Shown: in pieces, positions 2,620 through 9,258 of the stretch
How the letters are laid out: the number at the start of each line of letters is the position of its first letter
Numbering within the stretch: the stretch's first letter is position 1
Assembly: GCF_053078305.1 (NCBI RefSeq)
Contig: NZ_CP166879.1
Length of the DNA: 64,000 nt
Direction: 5' to 3' (one strand)
Position numbers and translations under genes: made by a program
Notes under the pieces: generated by a model
Databases searched by the model: none
Told to the model about the DNA's origin: nothing
The model's input: the letters and a program-made list of their open reading frames with translations, nothing else

Positions 2620-3243
2620 CTAACGTTTACGGCGGTAAATACGGTGTTCGATCATTACACCTATGATCTGTAAGTTCATATCTGCACTACGAAAAATAGG
2701 GTAATCAGGATTTAGGGGGATTAATTCAAAGTCGTCGATGCCGATTCCTAATGGACGGTATTTTTTAAATGTAGCTTCGTGACCGTCGTTTTTGGCGACA
2801 ACAAACTCCCCTGGTGCAGGACATAGTTCAGGATCGATGATAACAATGTCTCCTTCTTTAAACTCTGGTTGCATGCTGTCGCCATCAATACGTAATGCGA
2901 AGCATGTTTCTGGAATGTCAGAGTCTGCCAAAATATATTCAAATTCCCCTGTCAGATCTGTTATGTCTCTTGCTTCTGTAAGCTCTCCTGCCTGAACGTA
3001 ACTTAATATAGGTATGCGTCTGGTACTTATCTCCGCGAGAGGCATAATATTTTTACCGTTCAGTAGCCAGTCTGGGCTACATTTCAAGGCCTTAGCCAGA
3101 TCCAGAAGATTGCGTGGCTTTCTGGTTCGTCCACTTTCGATGGATTCTATGGATTGTTGGCTAACCCCTGCAGAATTCGCTACTTCCACTTGAGTCATTC
3201 CTAATTCCAAACGACGTGCTTTAAAACGGGCTGCGAGAGACAT
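2620..3243 (-). CDS. CI-like phage repressor (N-terminal HTH, C-terminal S24 LexA-type autopeptidase)
   Basis: HTH signature LGMTQVEVANSAGVSQQSIESIE; S24 motifs GDSM and FKKY; start taken at ATG 3243 (ORF track extends to 3294). Confidence 0.8.
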   Translation of the reverse strand: MSLAARFKARRLELGMTQVEVANSAGVSQQSIESIESGRTRKPRNLLDLAKALKCSPDWLLNGKNIMPLAEISTRRIPILSYVQAGELTEARDITDLTGEFEYILADSDIPETCFALRIDGDSMQPEFKEGDIVIIDPELCPAPGEFVVAKNDGHEATFKKYRPLGIGIDDFELIPLNPDYPIFRSADMNLQIIGVMIEHRIYRRKR

Positions 3244-3363
3244 GGGATTAGTCCTTCTGGGTTGTATTAATGTGTATACCCACATTAAAAACAATTTTTG
3301 TTGTATTTGACAAACCTCATTTGTTGTTGCTAAATACCACTAAAATTGTATGAGGTGAAAGCA
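3244..3363. promoter_or_regulatory. Divergent immunity control region: operator-like palindrome TTAATGTG-N6-CACATTAA (3267-3288), perfect -35 TTGACA (3307-3312), Shine-Dalgarno GAGGTG before cro
   Basis: Read directly from sequence; -10 element is weak. Confidence 0.45.
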
Positions 3364-3579: not shown

Positions 3580-5772
3580 ATGTCCGATAGCAAACCATGG
3601 GGAGCTACGCCTGATGAGTGGTTTCATTTCGACCTGGTATTGGGGAGAACTGATCATCTTCTCCCAGTTGTATGTAACCCCGGTGCGACCATATCCCCTG
3701 ATAGTAAACTGAAAGCGCTGGGTAAGACGCCAAGTCGCTATAACCGGGACCGCCAGGTCACCGGTATTGCTCAATGGACCGGGTATGTTGTTACTGAGCA
3801 TGATTTTGCCCGCTGGTCGAATGAACCGGATTATGGCATCTGCGTGCGTACAGGCCATGGCTGGCTGGCGCTGGACGGCGATAGCGAAGATGAAGACATT
3901 CAGGCAGATATTCGCAAAACGCTTGTGCAACTTCTGGGGGAGTTGCCGCCGCGACGCTGGCGAGCAAACAGTAATAAGTGTCTGTATCTGCTGGCCGTTG
4001 ATGGTGATTTCCGTAAGCGTATCCATCGCCTGGCGGGGGATATGGGCATTATCGAGTTGCTGGCGAACGGGCAGCAGTTCGTTGCCTGTGGTACGCACAG
4101 CAGCGGCGCGCGTATTGAATGGGACGGTGGTTTGCCGGATGAACCTCCGGCTATTACTGGTGAGCAGCTTGAAACGCTGTGGCAGCGCCTGGCTGAACAA
4201 CTCCCTGTGTCGGTAACCACCGAAGCGGGCAACACGAAGATGCGCGACCGATCAGCATTCACGCCCGGCGCGACGGATGATACAGCTGAATATCTTGATG
4301 CCAATGGCTGGACGCTGCTGGATGGCGCAAATGGTGAACGATATATCCGCTGTCCGTTTGAAGACGGCCACAGTAGCGGGGGCGATCCAACAAGCACAGC
4401 TTATTTTCCTGCGGGAACCGCGGGCTTTGAGCAGGGGCATTTTAAATGCCTGCATGCCAGTTGTGCGCATCGTGATGACGGAGATTTCCTTAATGCCATC
4501 GGGATCCGCAACGACGATTTCGAAGATCTGACCAGCACCGAAGTGGCGGAACCTTTACCGCTGCCTGCTTTCGAGCGTGATAAATGGGGGCGTATCGAGG
4601 CAACCATCAGCAACGCAGCCAAAGCAGTAGTACGCCCTGATTTTGTGGACATCGATATTCGCTTTGACCAGTTCCGCGACGAAATCATGTTTGCCTCTGC
4701 AGGATCCGGACAATGGCGAGCATTCACCGATGCGGATTATGCGCGCCTGCGCATCACGATGGAAAAGCGGGGATTTAAACCTGTTGGTCGTGAACTTATT
4801 CGCGATGTGGTGTTACTTGCAGCCGATGAACAACCATTCGATTCAGCGATTACCTGGCTGAACGGGCTGGAGTGGGATGGCGTGCCGCGCATCGAATGTT
4901 TCTACCATACGCACTTCGGTACAGCCGACACGCCTTATACCCGTGCGGTGTCTATGTACATGTGGACCGCGTTGGCGGGGCGAGTACTGGAGCCAGGCAT
5001 CAAAGCGGATATGGTGCCGATCCTCGTTGGTCCGCAGGGCTGCGGTAAGTCTTCCGGAGTGGAGGCACTGAGCCCTGATCCTGCGTTTTTTACTGAAATC
5101 TCTTTTGCCGAAAAAGACGATGATCTCGCTCGAAAAATGCGTGGTCGGCTGGTGGCAGAGATTGGTGAACTGCGCGGACTTAATACCAAAGAGCTGGAGT
5201 CAATCAAAGCGTTTGTGACGCGTACTCACGAAAACTGGATCCCGAAATACCGGGAGTTCGCCACCCAGTTTCCTCGTCGCCTGGTGTTCGTTGGTACCAC
5301 CAATGAGGACGAATTCCTTGCGGACAAGACTGGTAACCGTCGCTGGCTCCCCGTGGAAGTGTCGAAAGTCGACGTGAAAGCGATAAAAAGAGATCTCCTT
5401 TTACTTTGGGCTGAGGCTCGTGAGGTGTTTCAGCGTCTGGGGGGTATCCAGTTCCGTGAGGCTGAACAACTGGCAGCGAGTGTCCATGAACAGTACACCA
5501 TCAAGGATGCTTGGCTTGAAACGGTAGAGAAATGGCTCGACACGCCAGACCTGATGACTAATGAACTTCCGCGAAATTGCGAATTTTTACGCGCAAGTGA
5601 TGTTTTGCGTGATGCGATTGGGCTAAATCCTGACCGCATCGGAAAACGCGAAGAAATGCGAATTAGTAATGTTTTGCAAAATTGCGGGTATAAGCGTGTC
5701 CAAAGGCGAATTGGGGGGAAAATGACTCGAATTTTTGAGGCGGTGTCCCAACCTGTACCAGCCTCAAAATAG
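3580..5772 (+). CDS. Phage replication primase-helicase (N-terminal primase-polymerase-like region, C-terminal P4/VirE-type NTPase)
   Basis: 730 aa; Walker A GPQGCGKSS; family assignment from recall. Confidence 0.75.
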   Translation: MSDSKPWGATPDEWFHFDLVLGRTDHLLPVVCNPGATISPDSKLKALGKTPSRYNRDRQVTGIAQWTGYVVTEHDFARWSNEPDYGICVRTGHGWLALDGDSEDEDIQADIRKTLVQLLGELPPRRWRANSNKCLYLLAVDGDFRKRIHRLAGDMGIIELLANGQQFVACGTHSSGARIEWDGGLPDEPPAITGEQLETLWQRLAEQLPVSVTTEAGNTKMRDRSAFTPGATDDTAEYLDANGWTLLDGANGERYIRCPFEDGHSSGGDPTSTAYFPAGTAGFEQGHFKCLHASCAHRDDGDFLNAIGIRNDDFEDLTSTEVAEPLPLPAFERDKWGRIEATISNAAKAVVRPDFVDIDIRFDQFRDEIMFASAGSGQWRAFTDADYARLRITMEKRGFKPVGRELIRDVVLLAADEQPFDSAITWLNGLEWDGVPRIECFYHTHFGTADTPYTRAVSMYMWTALAGRVLEPGIKADMVPILVGPQGCGKSSGVEALSPDPAFFTEISFAEKDDDLARKMRGRLVAEIGELRGLNTKELESIKAFVTRTHENWIPKYREFATQFPRRLVFVGTTNEDEFLADKTGNRRWLPVEVSKVDVKAIKRDLLLLWAEAREVFQRLGGIQFREAEQLAASVHEQYTIKDAWLETVEKWLDTPDLMTNELPRNCEFLRASDVLRDAIGLNPDRIGKREEMRISNVLQNCGYKRVQRRIGGKMTRIFEAVSQPVPASK

Positions 5773-5773
5773 A

Positions 5774-5925
5774 GGTTGGTACATTTTAACTAATTGAATT
5801 TAAAGGTCAGTACCAACTGTACCAACTGTACCAACCTAATTACTAAGAACCCCATATATATATATAAGTCGCTTGGGGAAAAGGTTTGAAAAGAGCTGGT
5901 ACAGGTGGGTACAGGTTGGTACAGG
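5774..5925. repeat. Iteron cluster: GTTGGTACA once and TGTACCAAC x3 (5811-5835), AT-rich (TA)n core (5853-5866), inverted GTACAG-type repeats x3 (5896-5924); candidate replication origin
   Basis: Repeats read directly; sits immediately after the primase-helicase stop. Confidence 0.6.
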
Positions 5926-6053
5926 CCGAACAAGGAATTTTTTGCACATAACAGCGTGTAATAAGCGAATCGGAACTGCGTTATCCACACCCACGGATAA
6001 ACAGACGTGGTTCTCAGAAAATTTTTTCGTAGCAAAACGTAGAGGTCAGAGCT

Positions 6054-6476
6054 ATGCGTAATATTCAACAGGTTTTAGAGCGCTGGGGTGGCTGGGCAGC
6101 GAGTGAAGGTGGTAGCGTCTACTTTCCTCCTGTTGCAGCCGGGTTTAAGAATCTGCTACCCGCGACGCAGTCTGGAAGGCTGAAATGCAGTGACAATGAC
6201 GGTCTTATCATCAACTCCGCTATGAGCTGCCTGAAGAAAAAAGATCCGTATCTGTGCACGCTCCTTGAGTGGCATTACGTCCAGGCCATGCCCGTGCGGG
6301 CGATGGGTGAGAAGCTCGGCGTATCTCACACCCACGTTCTGAAGAGGCTTCAGGCGGCAGAGGGATTTATTGACGGTTGCTTAGCCATGCTGGATGTGGT
6401 GCTCGAAATGGATCAGTCGGTTCAGTCAAAGCCTCAGGCTATCAGGACTTTGCGTAGGAGCTGCTCGGCGGCATAA
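6054..6476 (+). CDS. Late-gene antiterminator, Q-like (putative)
   Basis: 140 aa; upstream of lysis cassette; resembles small Q-type antiterminators from recall. Confidence 0.45.
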   Translation: MRNIQQVLERWGGWAASEGGSVYFPPVAAGFKNLLPATQSGRLKCSDNDGLIINSAMSCLKKKDPYLCTLLEWHYVQAMPVRAMGEKLGVSHTHVLKRLQAAEGFIDGCLAMLDVVLEMDQSVQSKPQAIRTLRRSCSAA

Positions 6477-6507
6477 TATCCAGCAATCAATCACGTAAGG
6501 GAACCAG

Positions 6508-6684
6508 ATGGCTCTGATCAGCGTTCGCAACAGATTTGAAAGCTTCATGGAACAGAGGTACCCAGACCTGTCGTTGCAGGTCAAAGGTAATATTGGCGCA
6601 TCAATGAAGGCCCAACTTGGCATCGGATTGAACGAGAATTGTACAGTGAAGATGTTACTTACTGTGATTCAGCAGTTCAGTTGA
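6508..6684 (+). CDS. Small hypothetical protein (58 aa)
   Basis: Manual translation MALISVRNRFESFMEQRYPDL...; SD AAGGGA upstream; stop overlaps next start. Confidence 0.3.
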   Translation: MALISVRNRFESFMEQRYPDLSLQVKGNIGASMKAQLGIGLNENCTVKMLLTVIQQFS

Positions 6685-6848
6685 TGTGGACACTCTTTCA
6701 GGCAGGTGTTCTGGCCGAACGAAGAGCTACCAGCGTTACGCTTCCTGCGCTGAAGGCAAAGCCGGATAGCTTCTACGATGCGGGTTATAACGAAGGTATT
6801 CAGGACTGTCGTAAACATCTGACGGCATCAGGCATCAAGGTAAGATAA
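6684..6848 (+). CDS. Small hypothetical protein (54 aa), translationally coupled to upstream small ORF
   Basis: ATG at 6684 overlaps upstream TGA (TGATG); ORF track lists a longer form from 6639. Confidence 0.3.
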   Translation: MWTLFQAGVLAERRATSVTLPALKAKPDSFYDAGYNEGIQDCRKHLTASGIKVR

Positions 6849-6914
6849 AAAATAGTTGTGGAATTCCAAAAAGCCGATTAGCCTGATATCTGTTGAAAAC
6901 AGTTCATCACGAAG

Positions 6915-6940
6915 AGGCTTCCGCAAGGGGGCCTTTTTTA
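6915..6940 (+). terminator. Rho-independent terminator (stem AGGCTTCC / GGGGGCCT, GCAA loop, T-run)
   Basis: Hairpin plus TTTTT read directly. Confidence 0.5.
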
Positions 6941-7167
6941 TTGCCCCATTCTGGGGAAAAGTTAATAAAACAGGGCTTTCGCTGCGAAAAAACGCTATGC
7001 AGTTTTTGCCCTTTTTTATGCACCTTTTATTCACTCGAATTTCGTCATTCTGGACCACTTAAGTTGATTAAATAGGCCTTTCATCGCAAATCTATTGCGA
7101 GCGGGGATCGTGTGGTTCCTATAACGTACATTATGTTAAATAACTTCCTTTTTTAACAAATTTAACA

Positions 7168-7193
7168 AGGTTCGCTATGGCGAACTTTTTTTT
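7168..7193 (+). terminator. Rho-independent terminator (GTTCGC-TATG-GCGAAC then T8); possible tR'-like terminator ahead of the lysis genes
   Basis: Perfect 6-bp stem and 8 T read directly; tR' role is inference by analogy with lambda. Confidence 0.55.
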
Positions 7194-7294
7194 GTATTCA
7201 GGGCCCACCGAAGGACGGCTCATAACCCAATCCTACGGGCGTATACGCAGGGCCCGCCTTTCAACAACACCCCGTAATGGCGGAGGTGGGAAGT

Positions 7295-7636
7295 ATGAAA
7301 ATGCACAATGCTCCTCATTCCTGGCCTGACTTACTGGAACTCTTACAAAGTTGGTGGCGTGGAGATACGCCGTTGGGCGCAGTGGTTATGTCAATTGTTA
7401 TGGCTGGCTTGCGCATTGCCTATTTTGGCGGTGGCGGCGGCTGGAAACGAAAAACGCTTGAGATTTTGCTCTGTGGTGCTCTGACGCTGACCTTTGCATC
7501 CGCTCTTGAGTATGTTGGATGGCCTAAATCTCTTTCTGTTGCCATTGGTGGTGGTGTTGGGCTGATCGGTGTCGATGCTATTCGTGGGGCTGCAATGCGA
7601 GTAATCGGTAACAAGTTTGGTGGCTCTAAGGAGTAG
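7295..7636 (+). CDS. Holin, class I (three predicted TM segments) with dual-start Met-Lys-Met motif
   Basis: ATG AAA ATG at 7295-7303 after SD GGAGGTGGG; hydrophobic segments; directly upstream of endolysin. Confidence 0.7.
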   Translation: MKMHNAPHSWPDLLELLQSWWRGDTPLGAVVMSIVMAGLRIAYFGGGGGWKRKTLEILLCGALTLTFASALEYVGWPKSLSVAIGGGVGLIGVDAIRGAAMRVIGNKFGGSKE

Positions 7637-7639
7637 TTC

Positions 7640-8116
7640 ATGCAGACACTAAATTCCCAACGTAAAGCTTTCCTGGATATGGTGGCATGGTCAGAAGGAA
7701 CGGATAACGGGCGACAACCGACACGTAATCACGGTTATGACGTTATCGTCGGAGGTGAGTTGTTCACTGATTACTCCGATCACCCTCGCAAACTTGTCAC
7801 GCTAAACCCGAAGCTTAAATCAACAGCCGCAGGCCGGTATCAGCTTCTTTCACGCTGGTGGGATGCCTACCGCAAGCAGCTTGGCCTGAAAGATTTTTCG
7901 CCAGAAAGTCAGGACGCTGTGGCGCTGCAGCAGATTAAAGAGCGTGGCGCTTTACCGATGATTGACCGTGGCGATATTCGTCAGGCAATCGACCGTTGCA
8001 GCAATATCTGGGCGTCGTTACCTGGTGCAGGTTACGGTCAGTATGAACATAAAATCGGTGACCTGATTTCCAGGTTTAAAGATGCTGGTGGGGTGGTAAA
8101 TGAAGCTGACTTATAA
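7640..8116 (+). CDS. R: Endolysin, lambda R-type lytic transglycosylase
   Basis: Near-identical to recalled lambda R N-terminus (QRKAFLDM.AWSEGTDNGRQ.TRNHGYDVIVGGELFTDYSDHPRKLVTLNPKLKST). Confidence 0.9.
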   Translation: MQTLNSQRKAFLDMVAWSEGTDNGRQPTRNHGYDVIVGGELFTDYSDHPRKLVTLNPKLKSTAAGRYQLLSRWWDAYRKQLGLKDFSPESQDAVALQQIKERGALPMIDRGDIRQAIDRCSNIWASLPGAGYGQYEHKIGDLISRFKDAGGVVNEADL

Positions 8117-8624
8117 GATTGTTATCGCGGCATTTTTCTTCTCTGCCTTTGGGGCGCTCGTCTGGTCTGCAAACCATTACCACAGCAAGTATCAGGCAGA
8201 AAAGTTGCGGGCTGATAAAGCGGAAGGTGAAGCTGAATATCAAGGGAAAGTGATAGCTAATCAGGCATTAAACTTCAATCGTTTTAACCAGATAGCAGAA
8301 AAAGCAAGCCGATTAAATTCTCTGGTCGACATCGGTCACGAGAAGACAGTCATCAAATACCGTGAGGTTCTGCTCCGTGAAAAGAACTGTGATTTCCCTG
8401 TTCCTGTTGATATTGCTGTCGGGGTGCTCAACTACGCGAACCGTTTACGCGCCAGCGCATTGCACGCCGATTCCGGGGACATTGACTCAGCCGGTGATCG
8501 TGCCACTACCACCAGAACGTTGACATATTGCCAGGCTGTTCTGTGGATTAACCCACTGTTGGCAGCCATCGAGAAGGCGAATAACCAGTTGGCTGGTGTC
8601 CGACAAATAGAACAGTCCCGGTAA
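8100..8624 (+). CDS. Rz-like i-spanin
   Basis: N-terminal TM segment; follows and overlaps endolysin; contains embedded +1-frame lipoprotein ORF. Confidence 0.65.
   Translation: MKLTYKIVIAAFFFSAFGALVWSANHYHSKYQAEKLRADKAEGEAEYQGKVIANQALNFNRFNQIAEKASRLNSLVDIGHEKTVIKYREVLLREKNCDFPVPVDIAVGVLNYANRLRASALHADSGDIDSAGDRATTTRTLTYCQAVLWINPLLAAIEKANNQLAGVRQIEQSR
8377..8523 (+). CDS. Rz1-like o-spanin lipoprotein embedded in the +1 frame of Rz
   Basis: Manual translation (GTG start assumed) KRTVISLFLLILLSGC... with lipobox LSGC and proline-rich tail PVIVPLPPER; start codon uncertain. Confidence 0.5.
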   Translation: MKRTVISLFLLILLSGCSTTRTVYAPAHCTPIPGTLTQPVIVPLPPER

Positions 8625-8685
8625 TAGCATTACAGAAGCTCTTCCAGGAGGGGCTTCGATAATGACCTGATAACTGGAAAATAAA

Positions 8686-9258
8686 ATGACTAAGAAGCTG
8701 AAAGCAAAACACGAGGTGTTTTGTCGCGAGTTTCTTGTCGATCTGAATGCTACACAAGCAGCTATTCGCGCAGGCTACGTCTCCAGGCGAGCACATGTTA
8801 CGGGGGCTGAACTATACGGTAAACCTGAGATACGCGCCCGTATTAACGAGCTAAAGCAGGAGCGTATTGATCAACTGGGCATTGATGCGAATTATGTGCT
8901 GATGCGACTGGTTGAGATCGACAGGCTCGATGTGGCTGACATCCTGGAGGACGATTTAAGTATTAAGCCTCTGTCTGCGTGGCCGGAATCGTGGCGTCGG
9001 TACCTGAGTGGATTTAACCTCGCTGAAATGTTTGAGGGGCGAGGAGATGACAGAGAAATGGTCGGGATCCTTAAAAAGATTAAGTGGCCTGATAAGGTTA
9101 AAAACCTTGAGTTGCTTGGGCGTCATGTTTCTGTTCAGGCGTTTAAAGACAACGTCAAAAATGAAGTGACTGGCGCTGATGGAGGACCCGTCAGAACAGA
9201 AATTACCAACTTAACGCCGGAGCAGGCTGCAGAAGCGTATAAAAAAATGATGGGCTAA
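8686..9258 (+). CDS. Terminase small subunit (P27-type)
   Basis: 190 aa; position before large terminase; family from recall. Confidence 0.75.

Follow-up and report, generated by a model that had tools for sequence, protein, structure and literature searches.

A probable psi/cer-type Xer site between the Q antiterminator gene and the lysis genes of a temperate tailed phage

The locus

The interval considered here (positions 6508–7193) belongs to a 64,000-nucleotide stretch of contig NZ_CP166879.1 (NCBI RefSeq assembly GCF_053078305.1), which is called the window throughout, and it lies between a Q-type antiterminator gene and the lysis genes of a temperate phage, at the junction of its early and late regions. 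From left to right it holds a gene of the phiTE_015 family broken by a frameshift, a candidate late promoter (PR') followed by an intrinsic terminator (T1), a very probable Xer recombination site of the psi/cer type, and a second intrinsic terminator (T2), and we regard this account of the interval as a whole as likely (Table 1). An earlier note on this DNA had listed about 220 bp between the terminators as non-coding; far from being a featureless spacer, this stretch is the best-conserved DNA of the region and coincides with the putative Xer site.

Table 1. Coordinates of predicted genes and other features in and around the studied interval.
Feature	Position	Strand	Remarks
LexA-like repressor gene	2620–3294	-	followed by a Cro-like gene
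VapE-type primase gene	3580–5772		followed by a repeat-rich gap before Q
Q antiterminator gene	6054–6476	+	PF06530 Phage_antitermQ, Pfam E = 5e-42
phiTE_015-family gene (PF26207)	6508–6848	+	113 aa when intact; reading frame split by the loss of 1 bp at 6624/6625
Candidate late promoter PR'	6856–6884	+	from an alignment of six phages including the mapped Stx PR'
T1 intrinsic terminator	6911–6940	+	12-bp stem, GCAA loop, then U6
Putative accessory sequences, XerC side	6947–7113	.	~170 bp, collinear with psi
TATGCA-type repeats	6996–7001, 7017–7022, 7028–7033	.	spacing 21 and 11 bp; third copy is TATTCA in the window
Putative 28-bp XerC/XerD core	7114–7141	.	XerC arm 7114–7124, center 7125–7130, XerD arm 7131–7141
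Promoter-like site	7130–7159	-	TTGTTA (7159–7154), 18-nt spacer, CATAAT (7135–7130)
T2 intrinsic terminator	7167–7193	+	9-bp stem, then U8; 26 nt after the XerD arm
GGGCCC...GGGCCC hairpin	7201–7255	+	between T2 and the holin start (7277/7295)

The Xer core and its accessory sequences

The putative core of the window reads GGTTCCTATAA-CGTACA-TTATGTTAAAT, to be compared with GGTGCGCATAA-TGTATA-TTATGTTAAAT for Escherichia coli dif (PMC2731167) and GGTGCGCGCAA-GATCCA-TTATGTTAAAC for pSC101 psi. The XerD arm is identical to that of dif at 11/11 positions, the inner ATAA of the XerC arm pairs with TTAT, and the center differs from that of dif at 2 of 6 positions. A pattern for the core has a single match in the 64-kb window, where 0 are expected. 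Across the family of related loci the information content is highest in the XerD arm, lower in the XerC arm and lowest in the central region, which is always 6 bp long and takes 29 hexamer variants among 94 loci. The XerD arm is near-invariant in 54 diverse loci, and TATGTTAAA is invariant in 54 diverse sequences even though it was absent from the second of the scan patterns described below. The agreement is weaker in the XerC arm, and this must count against the identification: only 8 of its 11 positions agree with dif in the window, and the family consensus, (A/G)GTGCGGGTAA, does little better with 8–9.

Published rules for Xer recombination sites (xrs) hold that the XerD arm is the best conserved part, that the central 6–8 bp are variable, and that ~200 bp of accessory sequence lie next to the XerC arm (PMC11724359). 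Because the core and its flank agree with these rules they are taken together as an Xer site, and on sequence grounds 6947–7141 is very probably a site of the psi/cer type. No conserved open reading frame (ORF) was found in 6941–7166 or in 7141–7166.

Conservation outside the core extends for ~170 bp and is restricted to the XerC side. This flank remains free of insertions and deletions while the adjoining Q proteins drop to 30–44 per cent identity, and it is collinear with pSC101 psi and with a site on the 47-kb E. coli plasmid pSCU-204-5. A profile built from the accessory region with the core left out matches the two plasmids at the corresponding position (E = 3e-4 and 0.07). Of 102 unique loci chosen by the accessory pattern alone, 94 carry the exact XerD arm TTATGTTAAA, at a fixed distance of either 125 or 135 nt, and these two classes are one helical turn apart. 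Within the region lie an imperfect inverted repeat, AAAACAGGGC (6967–6976) and GCCCTTTTTT (7008–7017), and the TATGCA-type repeats, which are invariant in loci found by the core pattern alone. In the family the latter form a direct repeat, TTTATGCA-N3-TTTATGCA, that has a period of 11 bp, and a third copy is found 21 bp to the left of these. The last two copies are centered ~87 bp from the XerC arm, which is the position of the ArcA box in psi; the ArcA-type direct repeats of psi and pSCU-204-5 are both centered 88 bp from the arm. The pSCU-204-5 locus (L169, 2833–3068) represents non-mobilizable 47-kb E. coli plasmids that carry a psi-like site with such an ArcA-type repeat.

It might be expected that a site of this type would carry a box for ArgR or ArcA, and in this respect the sequence speaks against the identification. 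The best match to an ARG box has 4 mismatches and the best match to an ArcA repeat 2–3, neither above shuffled sequence, while the controls psi and pSCU-204-5 each yielded an ArcA repeat with 1 mismatch at 88 bp. With neither box at the expected position, the second accessory factor may be other than ArgR or ArcA. Boxes for CpxR, PhoP and CreB were also considered for the TATGCA repeats and gave no convincing match (formal tests covered the ARG and ArcA boxes). We conclude from the sequence that this appears to be an Xer site of the psi/cer type whose accessory box is of a new kind.

Distribution of the site

Two pattern scans of IMG/VR, one with the right-hand and one with the left-hand block of the element, gave 60 and at least 120 loci, respectively. 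The element is present in >150 prophage loci across the Enterobacterales, always within or beside late and packaging genes, and the accessory side is always upstream relative to the late genes in annotated examples. Its neighbors vary widely. The site follows Q in 31 loci, the phiTE_015 gene in 21, and in 30 an 89-aa protein without a Pfam match that replaces Q; in 54 it separates a DUF2280 small terminase gene from the large terminase gene, in 9 it follows a PBSX-type large terminase gene, and in Klebsiella phage Mulock it is found between the large terminase and portal genes. Species representatives with the site include Pantoea, Photorhabdus, Serratia, Trabulsiella, Citrobacter, Enterobacter, Rahnella, Kosakonia and others. 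The interval from T1 to T2 is 96 per cent identical in a prophage whose Q is only 30 per cent identical to that of the window, and 79 per cent identical in another where Q is 44 per cent identical and the lysis genes differ.

The site was also met on a plasmid of 76.9 kb, pE76_003 of Enterobacter (L170), which contains a phage of the window's type in full, Q and the Xer site included, and is possibly a phage-plasmid or a prophage within a plasmid. A search of the open-access literature found no description of an Xer site with accessory sequences in a tailed phage.

Other readings of the conserved block

A block this well conserved might instead encode a structured non-coding RNA, either an Rcd-like one from the minus strand or a late leader like lambda 6S or StxS from the plus strand. 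The minus-strand promoter-like site, which overlaps the XerD arm and the central region and is directed into the accessory sequences, is the best sigma-70 match of the region on either strand and resembles Pcer/Rcd of ColE1 cer. In that site Rcd is encoded from a promoter inside the recombination site (PMC4393325), which offers a precedent for the RNA. The inverted repeat at 6967–7017 also shows some two-sided changes, with many T/G combinations that would suit a plus-strand RNA on an informal reading. Against this, the hairpins fold no better than shuffled sequence (z = 0.2 and -1.4), the -35 element is poorly conserved, with 4/6 attained by no more than 27 of the 83 family members, and no Rfam match was obtained for either strand of 5000–9000 apart from a sub-threshold, terminator-like one at T1. 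The strongest conservation follows the pattern of an Xer site and not that of a helix, and we consider an RNA improbable as an explanation of the block. A Pcer-like promoter and a terminator after the core were each entertained as family-wide features and found unsupported across the 83 loci.

The neighborhood of terminase genes invites a further reading, in which the block is a packaging site (cos or pac), the TATGCA repeats are binding sites of the small terminase subunit, and the near-palindrome ACATTATGT is the nick. Phased repeats are indeed present, and the element is found between DUF2280 small and large terminase genes in the 54 loci given above, and elsewhere after the large terminase gene or just upstream of the lysis–terminase block. 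Yet the would-be nick coincides with an XerD arm (11/11), which the canonical 6 bp separate from a dif-like XerC arm; the plasmid psi sites with which the flank is collinear have no relation to packaging; and the element accompanies at least three unrelated terminase types. Packaging is very unlikely because of this distribution and the match to dif. A cos site had been considered on account of the terminase neighbors and was dropped after the dif and psi matches. Least probable of all is an attachment site for the host dif as in CTX-phi and VGJ-phi, a role that the dif-like core with its 6-bp center might allow, since such sites can recombine under FtsK control (PMC11724359), but that hardly fits a site placed internally between Q and the lysis genes and not at a prophage end, with a center differing from dif at 2 of 6 positions (and commonest family variants that differ more), and with accessory sequences of the sort that confine action to one molecule.

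A broken phiTE_015-family gene behind Q

The two small ORFs downstream of Q (6508–6684, 58 aa; 6684–6848, 54 aa) and their TGATG overlap (6682–6686), as described in the earlier note, do exist, but the coupled pair that the note made of them is an artefact of a 1-bp deletion. Compared with E. coli EL361 and O103:H2 12009 (L002 and L003), the window has 3 differences in 801 bases, one of which is an A missing at 6624/6625, and in this alignment the reference with the extra A translates as one 113-aa protein. RefSeq genomes carry it as a single 342-bp coding sequence (CDS; WP_001174014.1, 'phiTE_015 family protein'). The start of the 54-aa ORF is an internal Met of the invariant VQLMW motif, and the final 19 residues of the 58-aa ORF are out-of-frame sequence. 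A search of 5.8 billion proteins returned homologues that were all single ORFs (14/14) of 106–113 aa belonging to PF26207, and the intact gene is found in ~60 complete E. coli genomes; a PF06530 Q gene invariably precedes it. The pair is thus almost certainly one early gene, normally located after Q, that the deletion has inactivated.

The frameshift allele is a genuine minority lineage and not a read error of the window, since E. coli FDAARGOS_1059 has the same two fragments annotated as two CDS and the exact 58-aa and 54-aa products occur on 85 and 95 contigs, respectively; the intact protein is on at least 1000. The RefSeq entries WP_157912310.1 and WP_000269847.1 are the small-ORF pair, i.e. 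the halves of a pseudogene.

The persistence of the allele on those 85–95 contigs, and an overlap that would permit reinitiation, could be taken to mean that the two ORFs work as a pair, whether as translationally coupled halves or as a toxin–antitoxin system. We think this very improbable. Besides the out-of-frame end of the first ORF and the single-ORF state of every homologue, no toxin, antitoxin or defence family was matched by the ORF products in Pfam, NCBIfam or PHROGs, and the gene is mostly deleted in viable induced phages. The two separately conserved small genes expected of a type II toxin–antitoxin system were likewise not found, the pair occurring only in the frameshift allele. The suggestion in the note that the pair is a small toxin–antitoxin or regulator is therefore given up in favor of a frameshifted pseudogene, given that the homologues are all single ORFs, and that of a moron fares no better, since lambdoid phages that are unrelated conserve the gene as a partner of Q.

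This partnership is seen in two phages, a prophage of Rahnella that has RusA and DUF968 and a metagenomic phage that has DnaB and DnaC; in each a phiTE_015 gene stands directly 3' of a PF06530 Q. At the loci L194 (3569–4330) and L195 (3582–4324) the PF26207 gene adjoins Q, and in L195 its start overlaps the Q stop. Because the gene comes directly after Q in lambdoid phages that are otherwise unrelated, the arrangement suggests that the two are functionally linked. The gene appears dispensable for induction, as its first ~290 bp are gone from phage 689R2.

The AlphaFold model of the 113-aa protein consists of three helices (predicted local distance difference test score, pLDDT, 72.7) and has no match in the PDB by Foldseek at E <= 0.001; a sequence search of the PDB gave no useful match, NCBIfam has no family for the protein or its fragments, and PHROGs returned function-less families plus a doubtful 'head closure' label.

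A candidate late promoter and the first terminator

Late control in the manner of PR'/qut/tR' had been proposed by analogy with lambda, and as a concept this holds, as a PF06530 Q lies upstream and the lysis genes are preceded by intrinsic terminators through which polymerase modified by Q would need to read; it is the placement that changes. The Q of the window belongs to the same family as the Q proteins of Shiga toxin (Stx) phages, with which it shares 42–46 per cent identity (tblastn). In Stx phages the PR' start has been mapped by differential RNA sequencing (dRNA-seq) 258 nt upstream of tR' (PMC7547250), and in the Stx2a record the mapped start falls 7–8 nt after the hexamer TATCAT. When six diverged phages are aligned, TAGCCT (window), TAATCT, TATTCT, TATCAT, TACGCT and TATGGT stand in one column, with the T, the A and the last T invariant, and a TTG-type -35 is located 16–18 nt upstream of the -10. 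In the window the candidate consists of TTGTGG (6856–6861), a 17-nt spacer and TAGCCT (6879–6884), with a predicted start at ~6888–6892. The motif GTTGTGGAATTCCAAA recurs 3' of the phiTE_015 gene in both the Rahnella and the metagenomic phage, and after it comes homology to the Stx-phage region TGATAAGAGTGGTTAC...hairpin-T7.

The spacer holds the palindrome GGAATTCC (6860–6867) and an A5 run. GGAATTCC is shared by the window and two phages whose Qs are 63 and 60 per cent identical to its own, and other motifs (CGATCG, GCGCTACGC and TGCGCAC) accompany Qs of 39, 44 and 31 per cent identity. Spacer motif and Q identity thus covary, as expected of a Q-binding element, and the palindrome is a possible candidate for one. 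By eye, AACAGT at 6898–6903 could be a -10-like pause element.

T1, which the earlier note had rightly called a strong GNRA-loop terminator (6915–6940), folds with -17.1 kcal/mol (z = -2.6 against shuffled controls). In relatives the hairpin and T-run are kept at this place while the stem sequences differ, with compensatory changes in L037 (GGCTCTC/GAGGGCC), L045 (GCTCCAA/TTGGGGC), L004 (GGCTCCG/CGGAGCC) and L030; a hairpin with a T-run also occupies the place of T1 in the Stx phage, L194 and L195. T1 is probably the first tR' of the late leader, at ~+20 to +50 from the predicted start.

Several observations weigh against a promoter at 6856–6884. Its hexamers are weak, each matching the consensus at only 3 of 6 positions, and a second candidate, CTGACG-16-TAAGAT at 6819–6846, has a higher consensus score. 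In addition, the main short RNA of Stx phages passes the first hairpin and ends at the +258 terminator (PMC7547250), so that T1 may leak and T2 may count as tR' after all. Taking these together with the alignment, we lean only slightly toward PR' at the predicted position upstream of T1.

The note suggested that T2 may end the short leader RNA, and the corresponding alternative places the late promoter and qut between T1 and T2 with T2 as tR'. T2 is indeed strong and precedes the holin by ~100 nt, and the 258-nt length of the Stx short RNA (PMC7547250) is near the ~305 nt from the predicted start to T2. But a scan of 6941–7166 found no sigma-70-like promoter on the plus strand, relaxed thresholds included, the promoter aligned with that of Stx phages sits upstream of T1, and the interval is unchanged beside Qs only 30 per cent identical, beside the non-Q 89-aa protein and between terminase genes. 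A Q-specific qut in the block is ruled out because the distribution of the block includes loci without Q, and we judge the alternative as a whole unlikely; a leader started at PR' would be ~50 nt long and end at T1. The conserved block itself had been tried as late promoter plus qut and was dropped, being present without Q as well. HK97 was of no use as an example of a PF06530-type PR', since its antitermination protein has ~207 aa (not ~140) and its record is without an annotated promoter or terminator.

The second terminator and the lysis leader

The note's other strong terminator, before the holin at 7168–7193, was borne out: T2 folds with -11.4 kcal/mol (z = -4.4), none of 200 shuffles folds equally well, and a terminator scan finds it too. 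Q-linked relatives (L056, L020, L037 and L030) have different hairpins and T-runs in its place. The hairpin at 7201–7255 (-25 kcal/mol, z = -2.5) shows the compensatory pair GGGCTC/GAGCCC in L056 and L037 and is deleted in L006; it may be an element of the 5' untranslated region of the lysis operon. In the holin frame an ATG at 7277 lies upstream of Met-Lys-Met at 7295–7303, with the RefSeq start at 7295, a layout that by its sequence is a dual-start arrangement in the style of lambda S105/S107.

Phage context

Downstream of the interval the gene order is lambda-family holin, endolysin, Rz, Terminase_2 small subunit and large subunit. Of 5426 complete E. coli genomes, 138 carry the window's phage, which was also recognised among induced E. 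coli phages, in four of them. Q has a weak, non-significant match to the Q21 structure 6jnx in a PDB sequence search (E = 0.13), and a scan detected no tRNA or tmRNA. In the gap between primase and Q (5754–5930) an AT-rich run, atatatatatataag, is flanked by three repeats of the CTGTACC type and, oppositely oriented, three GGTACAG repeats, an arrangement that looks like the iterons of a replication origin. The replication module of the O103:H2 12009 prophage (L171) includes its own family-A DNA polymerase, DUF2800, DUF2815, VRR-NUC and a cytosine methyltransferase, and that phage has a Q-type late switch. In E. coli FDAARGOS_943 (L006, 1301–2457) a copy of IS600 that reaches the edge of T1 stands in place of Q and everything leftward; the Xer site and the lysis genes are still there in what is a decaying prophage.

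Discussion

The pieces can be assembled into a proposal for how the interval might work. Early transcription from PR would yield Q and, where its gene is intact, the phiTE_015 protein. PR' would fire constitutively and, to judge from the alignment with the Stx PR', would stop at T1 without Q, giving a leader of ~50 nt; once Q loads at PR', polymerase would read past T1, the Xer site and T2 and so reach the genes for lysis and morphogenesis. T1 and T2 would thereby bracket the site so that no rightward transcription crosses it until Q-dependent late transcription begins. On the site thus shielded, the host proteins XerC, XerD and PepA could assemble together with a second factor that binds the direct repeat of TTTATGCA. 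Where one supercoiled circle holds two copies of the site in direct orientation, these would then synapse, and circular dimers or tandem copies would become monomers, as happens with psi on plasmids. It may be speculated that late transcription through the site switches it off when concatemers are needed.

Whether resolution of circular phage-genome dimers is the function of the site is a proposition that we hold to be evenly balanced. The fuller version, in which many temperate tailed phages of the Enterobacterales would carry a transcription-gated psi-like site that uses an accessory protein neither ArgR nor ArcA on TTTATGCA and resolves circular dimers or tandem prophage copies while the late operon is silent, until Q-dependent or other late transcription shuts it off and so allows multimers to form for packaging, is offered tentatively and may well prove wrong. 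Several facts sit poorly with these proposals. A T2-like terminator is found in only 4 of 83 family loci and is thus no family-wide feature. The prophage is chromosomal in all 138 of its 138 places in E. coli, and the counterpart in O103:H2 12009 has a large replication module. Tailed phages, moreover, package concatemeric DNA, and it is not obvious why they should need to resolve multimers.

Xer sites with accessory sequences are a textbook feature of small multicopy plasmids, and phage use of Xer is known mainly from filamentous phages that integrate at dif. What would be new here is a conserved psi-type site within the late region of integrated tailed prophages, in many genera and beside unrelated regulators and terminases. 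Such a site would imply that the phage depends on host XerCD and PepA at some stage of its circular life, for which the establishment of single-copy lysogeny, a plasmid-like carrier state and the removal of tandem copies are candidates. It would also provide a natural third class of accessory box with which to study how the topological filter is built. Recombination of such sites with related ones on plasmids is conceivable and might open a route from phages to plasmids or back. As regards annotation, a 'spacer' between Q and the lysis genes can contain a recombination site, the late promoter would be sought upstream of the first terminator, and RefSeq small-ORF pairs at this place are halves of a pseudogene.

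Comparison with known systems

The closest counterpart is psi of pSC101. Both sites have a 28-bp core with a 6-bp center, and their XerD arms differ at the last base only (TTATGTTAAAT vs TTATGTTAAAC); the phage family consensus has a GGTGCG-type XerC arm as psi does, and ~170–200 bp of accessory sequence lie on the XerC side. Blocks of sequence are shared next to the core (GAGTG..TGTTCGGG) and ~165 bp upstream (AAAYAGSGCTTTC), and each site has a direct repeat of 11-bp period centered ~88 bp from the XerC arm. The repeat itself differs, being of the TTTATGCA type in the phage and a TGTTA-type ArcA box in psi, as does the setting, since the phage site resides in integrated tailed prophages in or beside the late operon and psi on a small plasmid. 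The site in the window is, in addition, flanked by two terminators.

ColE1 cer likewise combines a core with accessory sequence (~180 bp, bound by PepA and a second protein) and has a promoter-like site that lies across the core and is directed toward the accessory sequences. In contrast, cer has an 8-bp center and an ARG box, whereas the phage site has a 6-bp center and no ARG box, and the promoter of the phage site is not conserved across the family.

With the lambdoid PR'–qut–tR' regions, and PR'–StxS of Stx phages in particular, the window shares a PF06530 Q, a candidate promoter right after the Q block with a TA...T -10, a hairpin and T-run ~25–50 nt after the start, and a further terminator 250–300 nt downstream, before the late genes. 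The candidate promoter of the window differs in following the phiTE_015 gene and not Q itself, and what lies between the terminators is a putative Xer site and not an StxS-type RNA; its start and Q-binding site are predictions.

CTX-phi, VGJ-phi, TLC-phi and the gonococcal island are also phage or island DNA with a dif-like XerCD site. In these elements the site is the attachment site, located at the element ends after integration, and lacks accessory sequences of the cer/psi type, whereas the site in the window is internal and is accompanied by accessory sequences.

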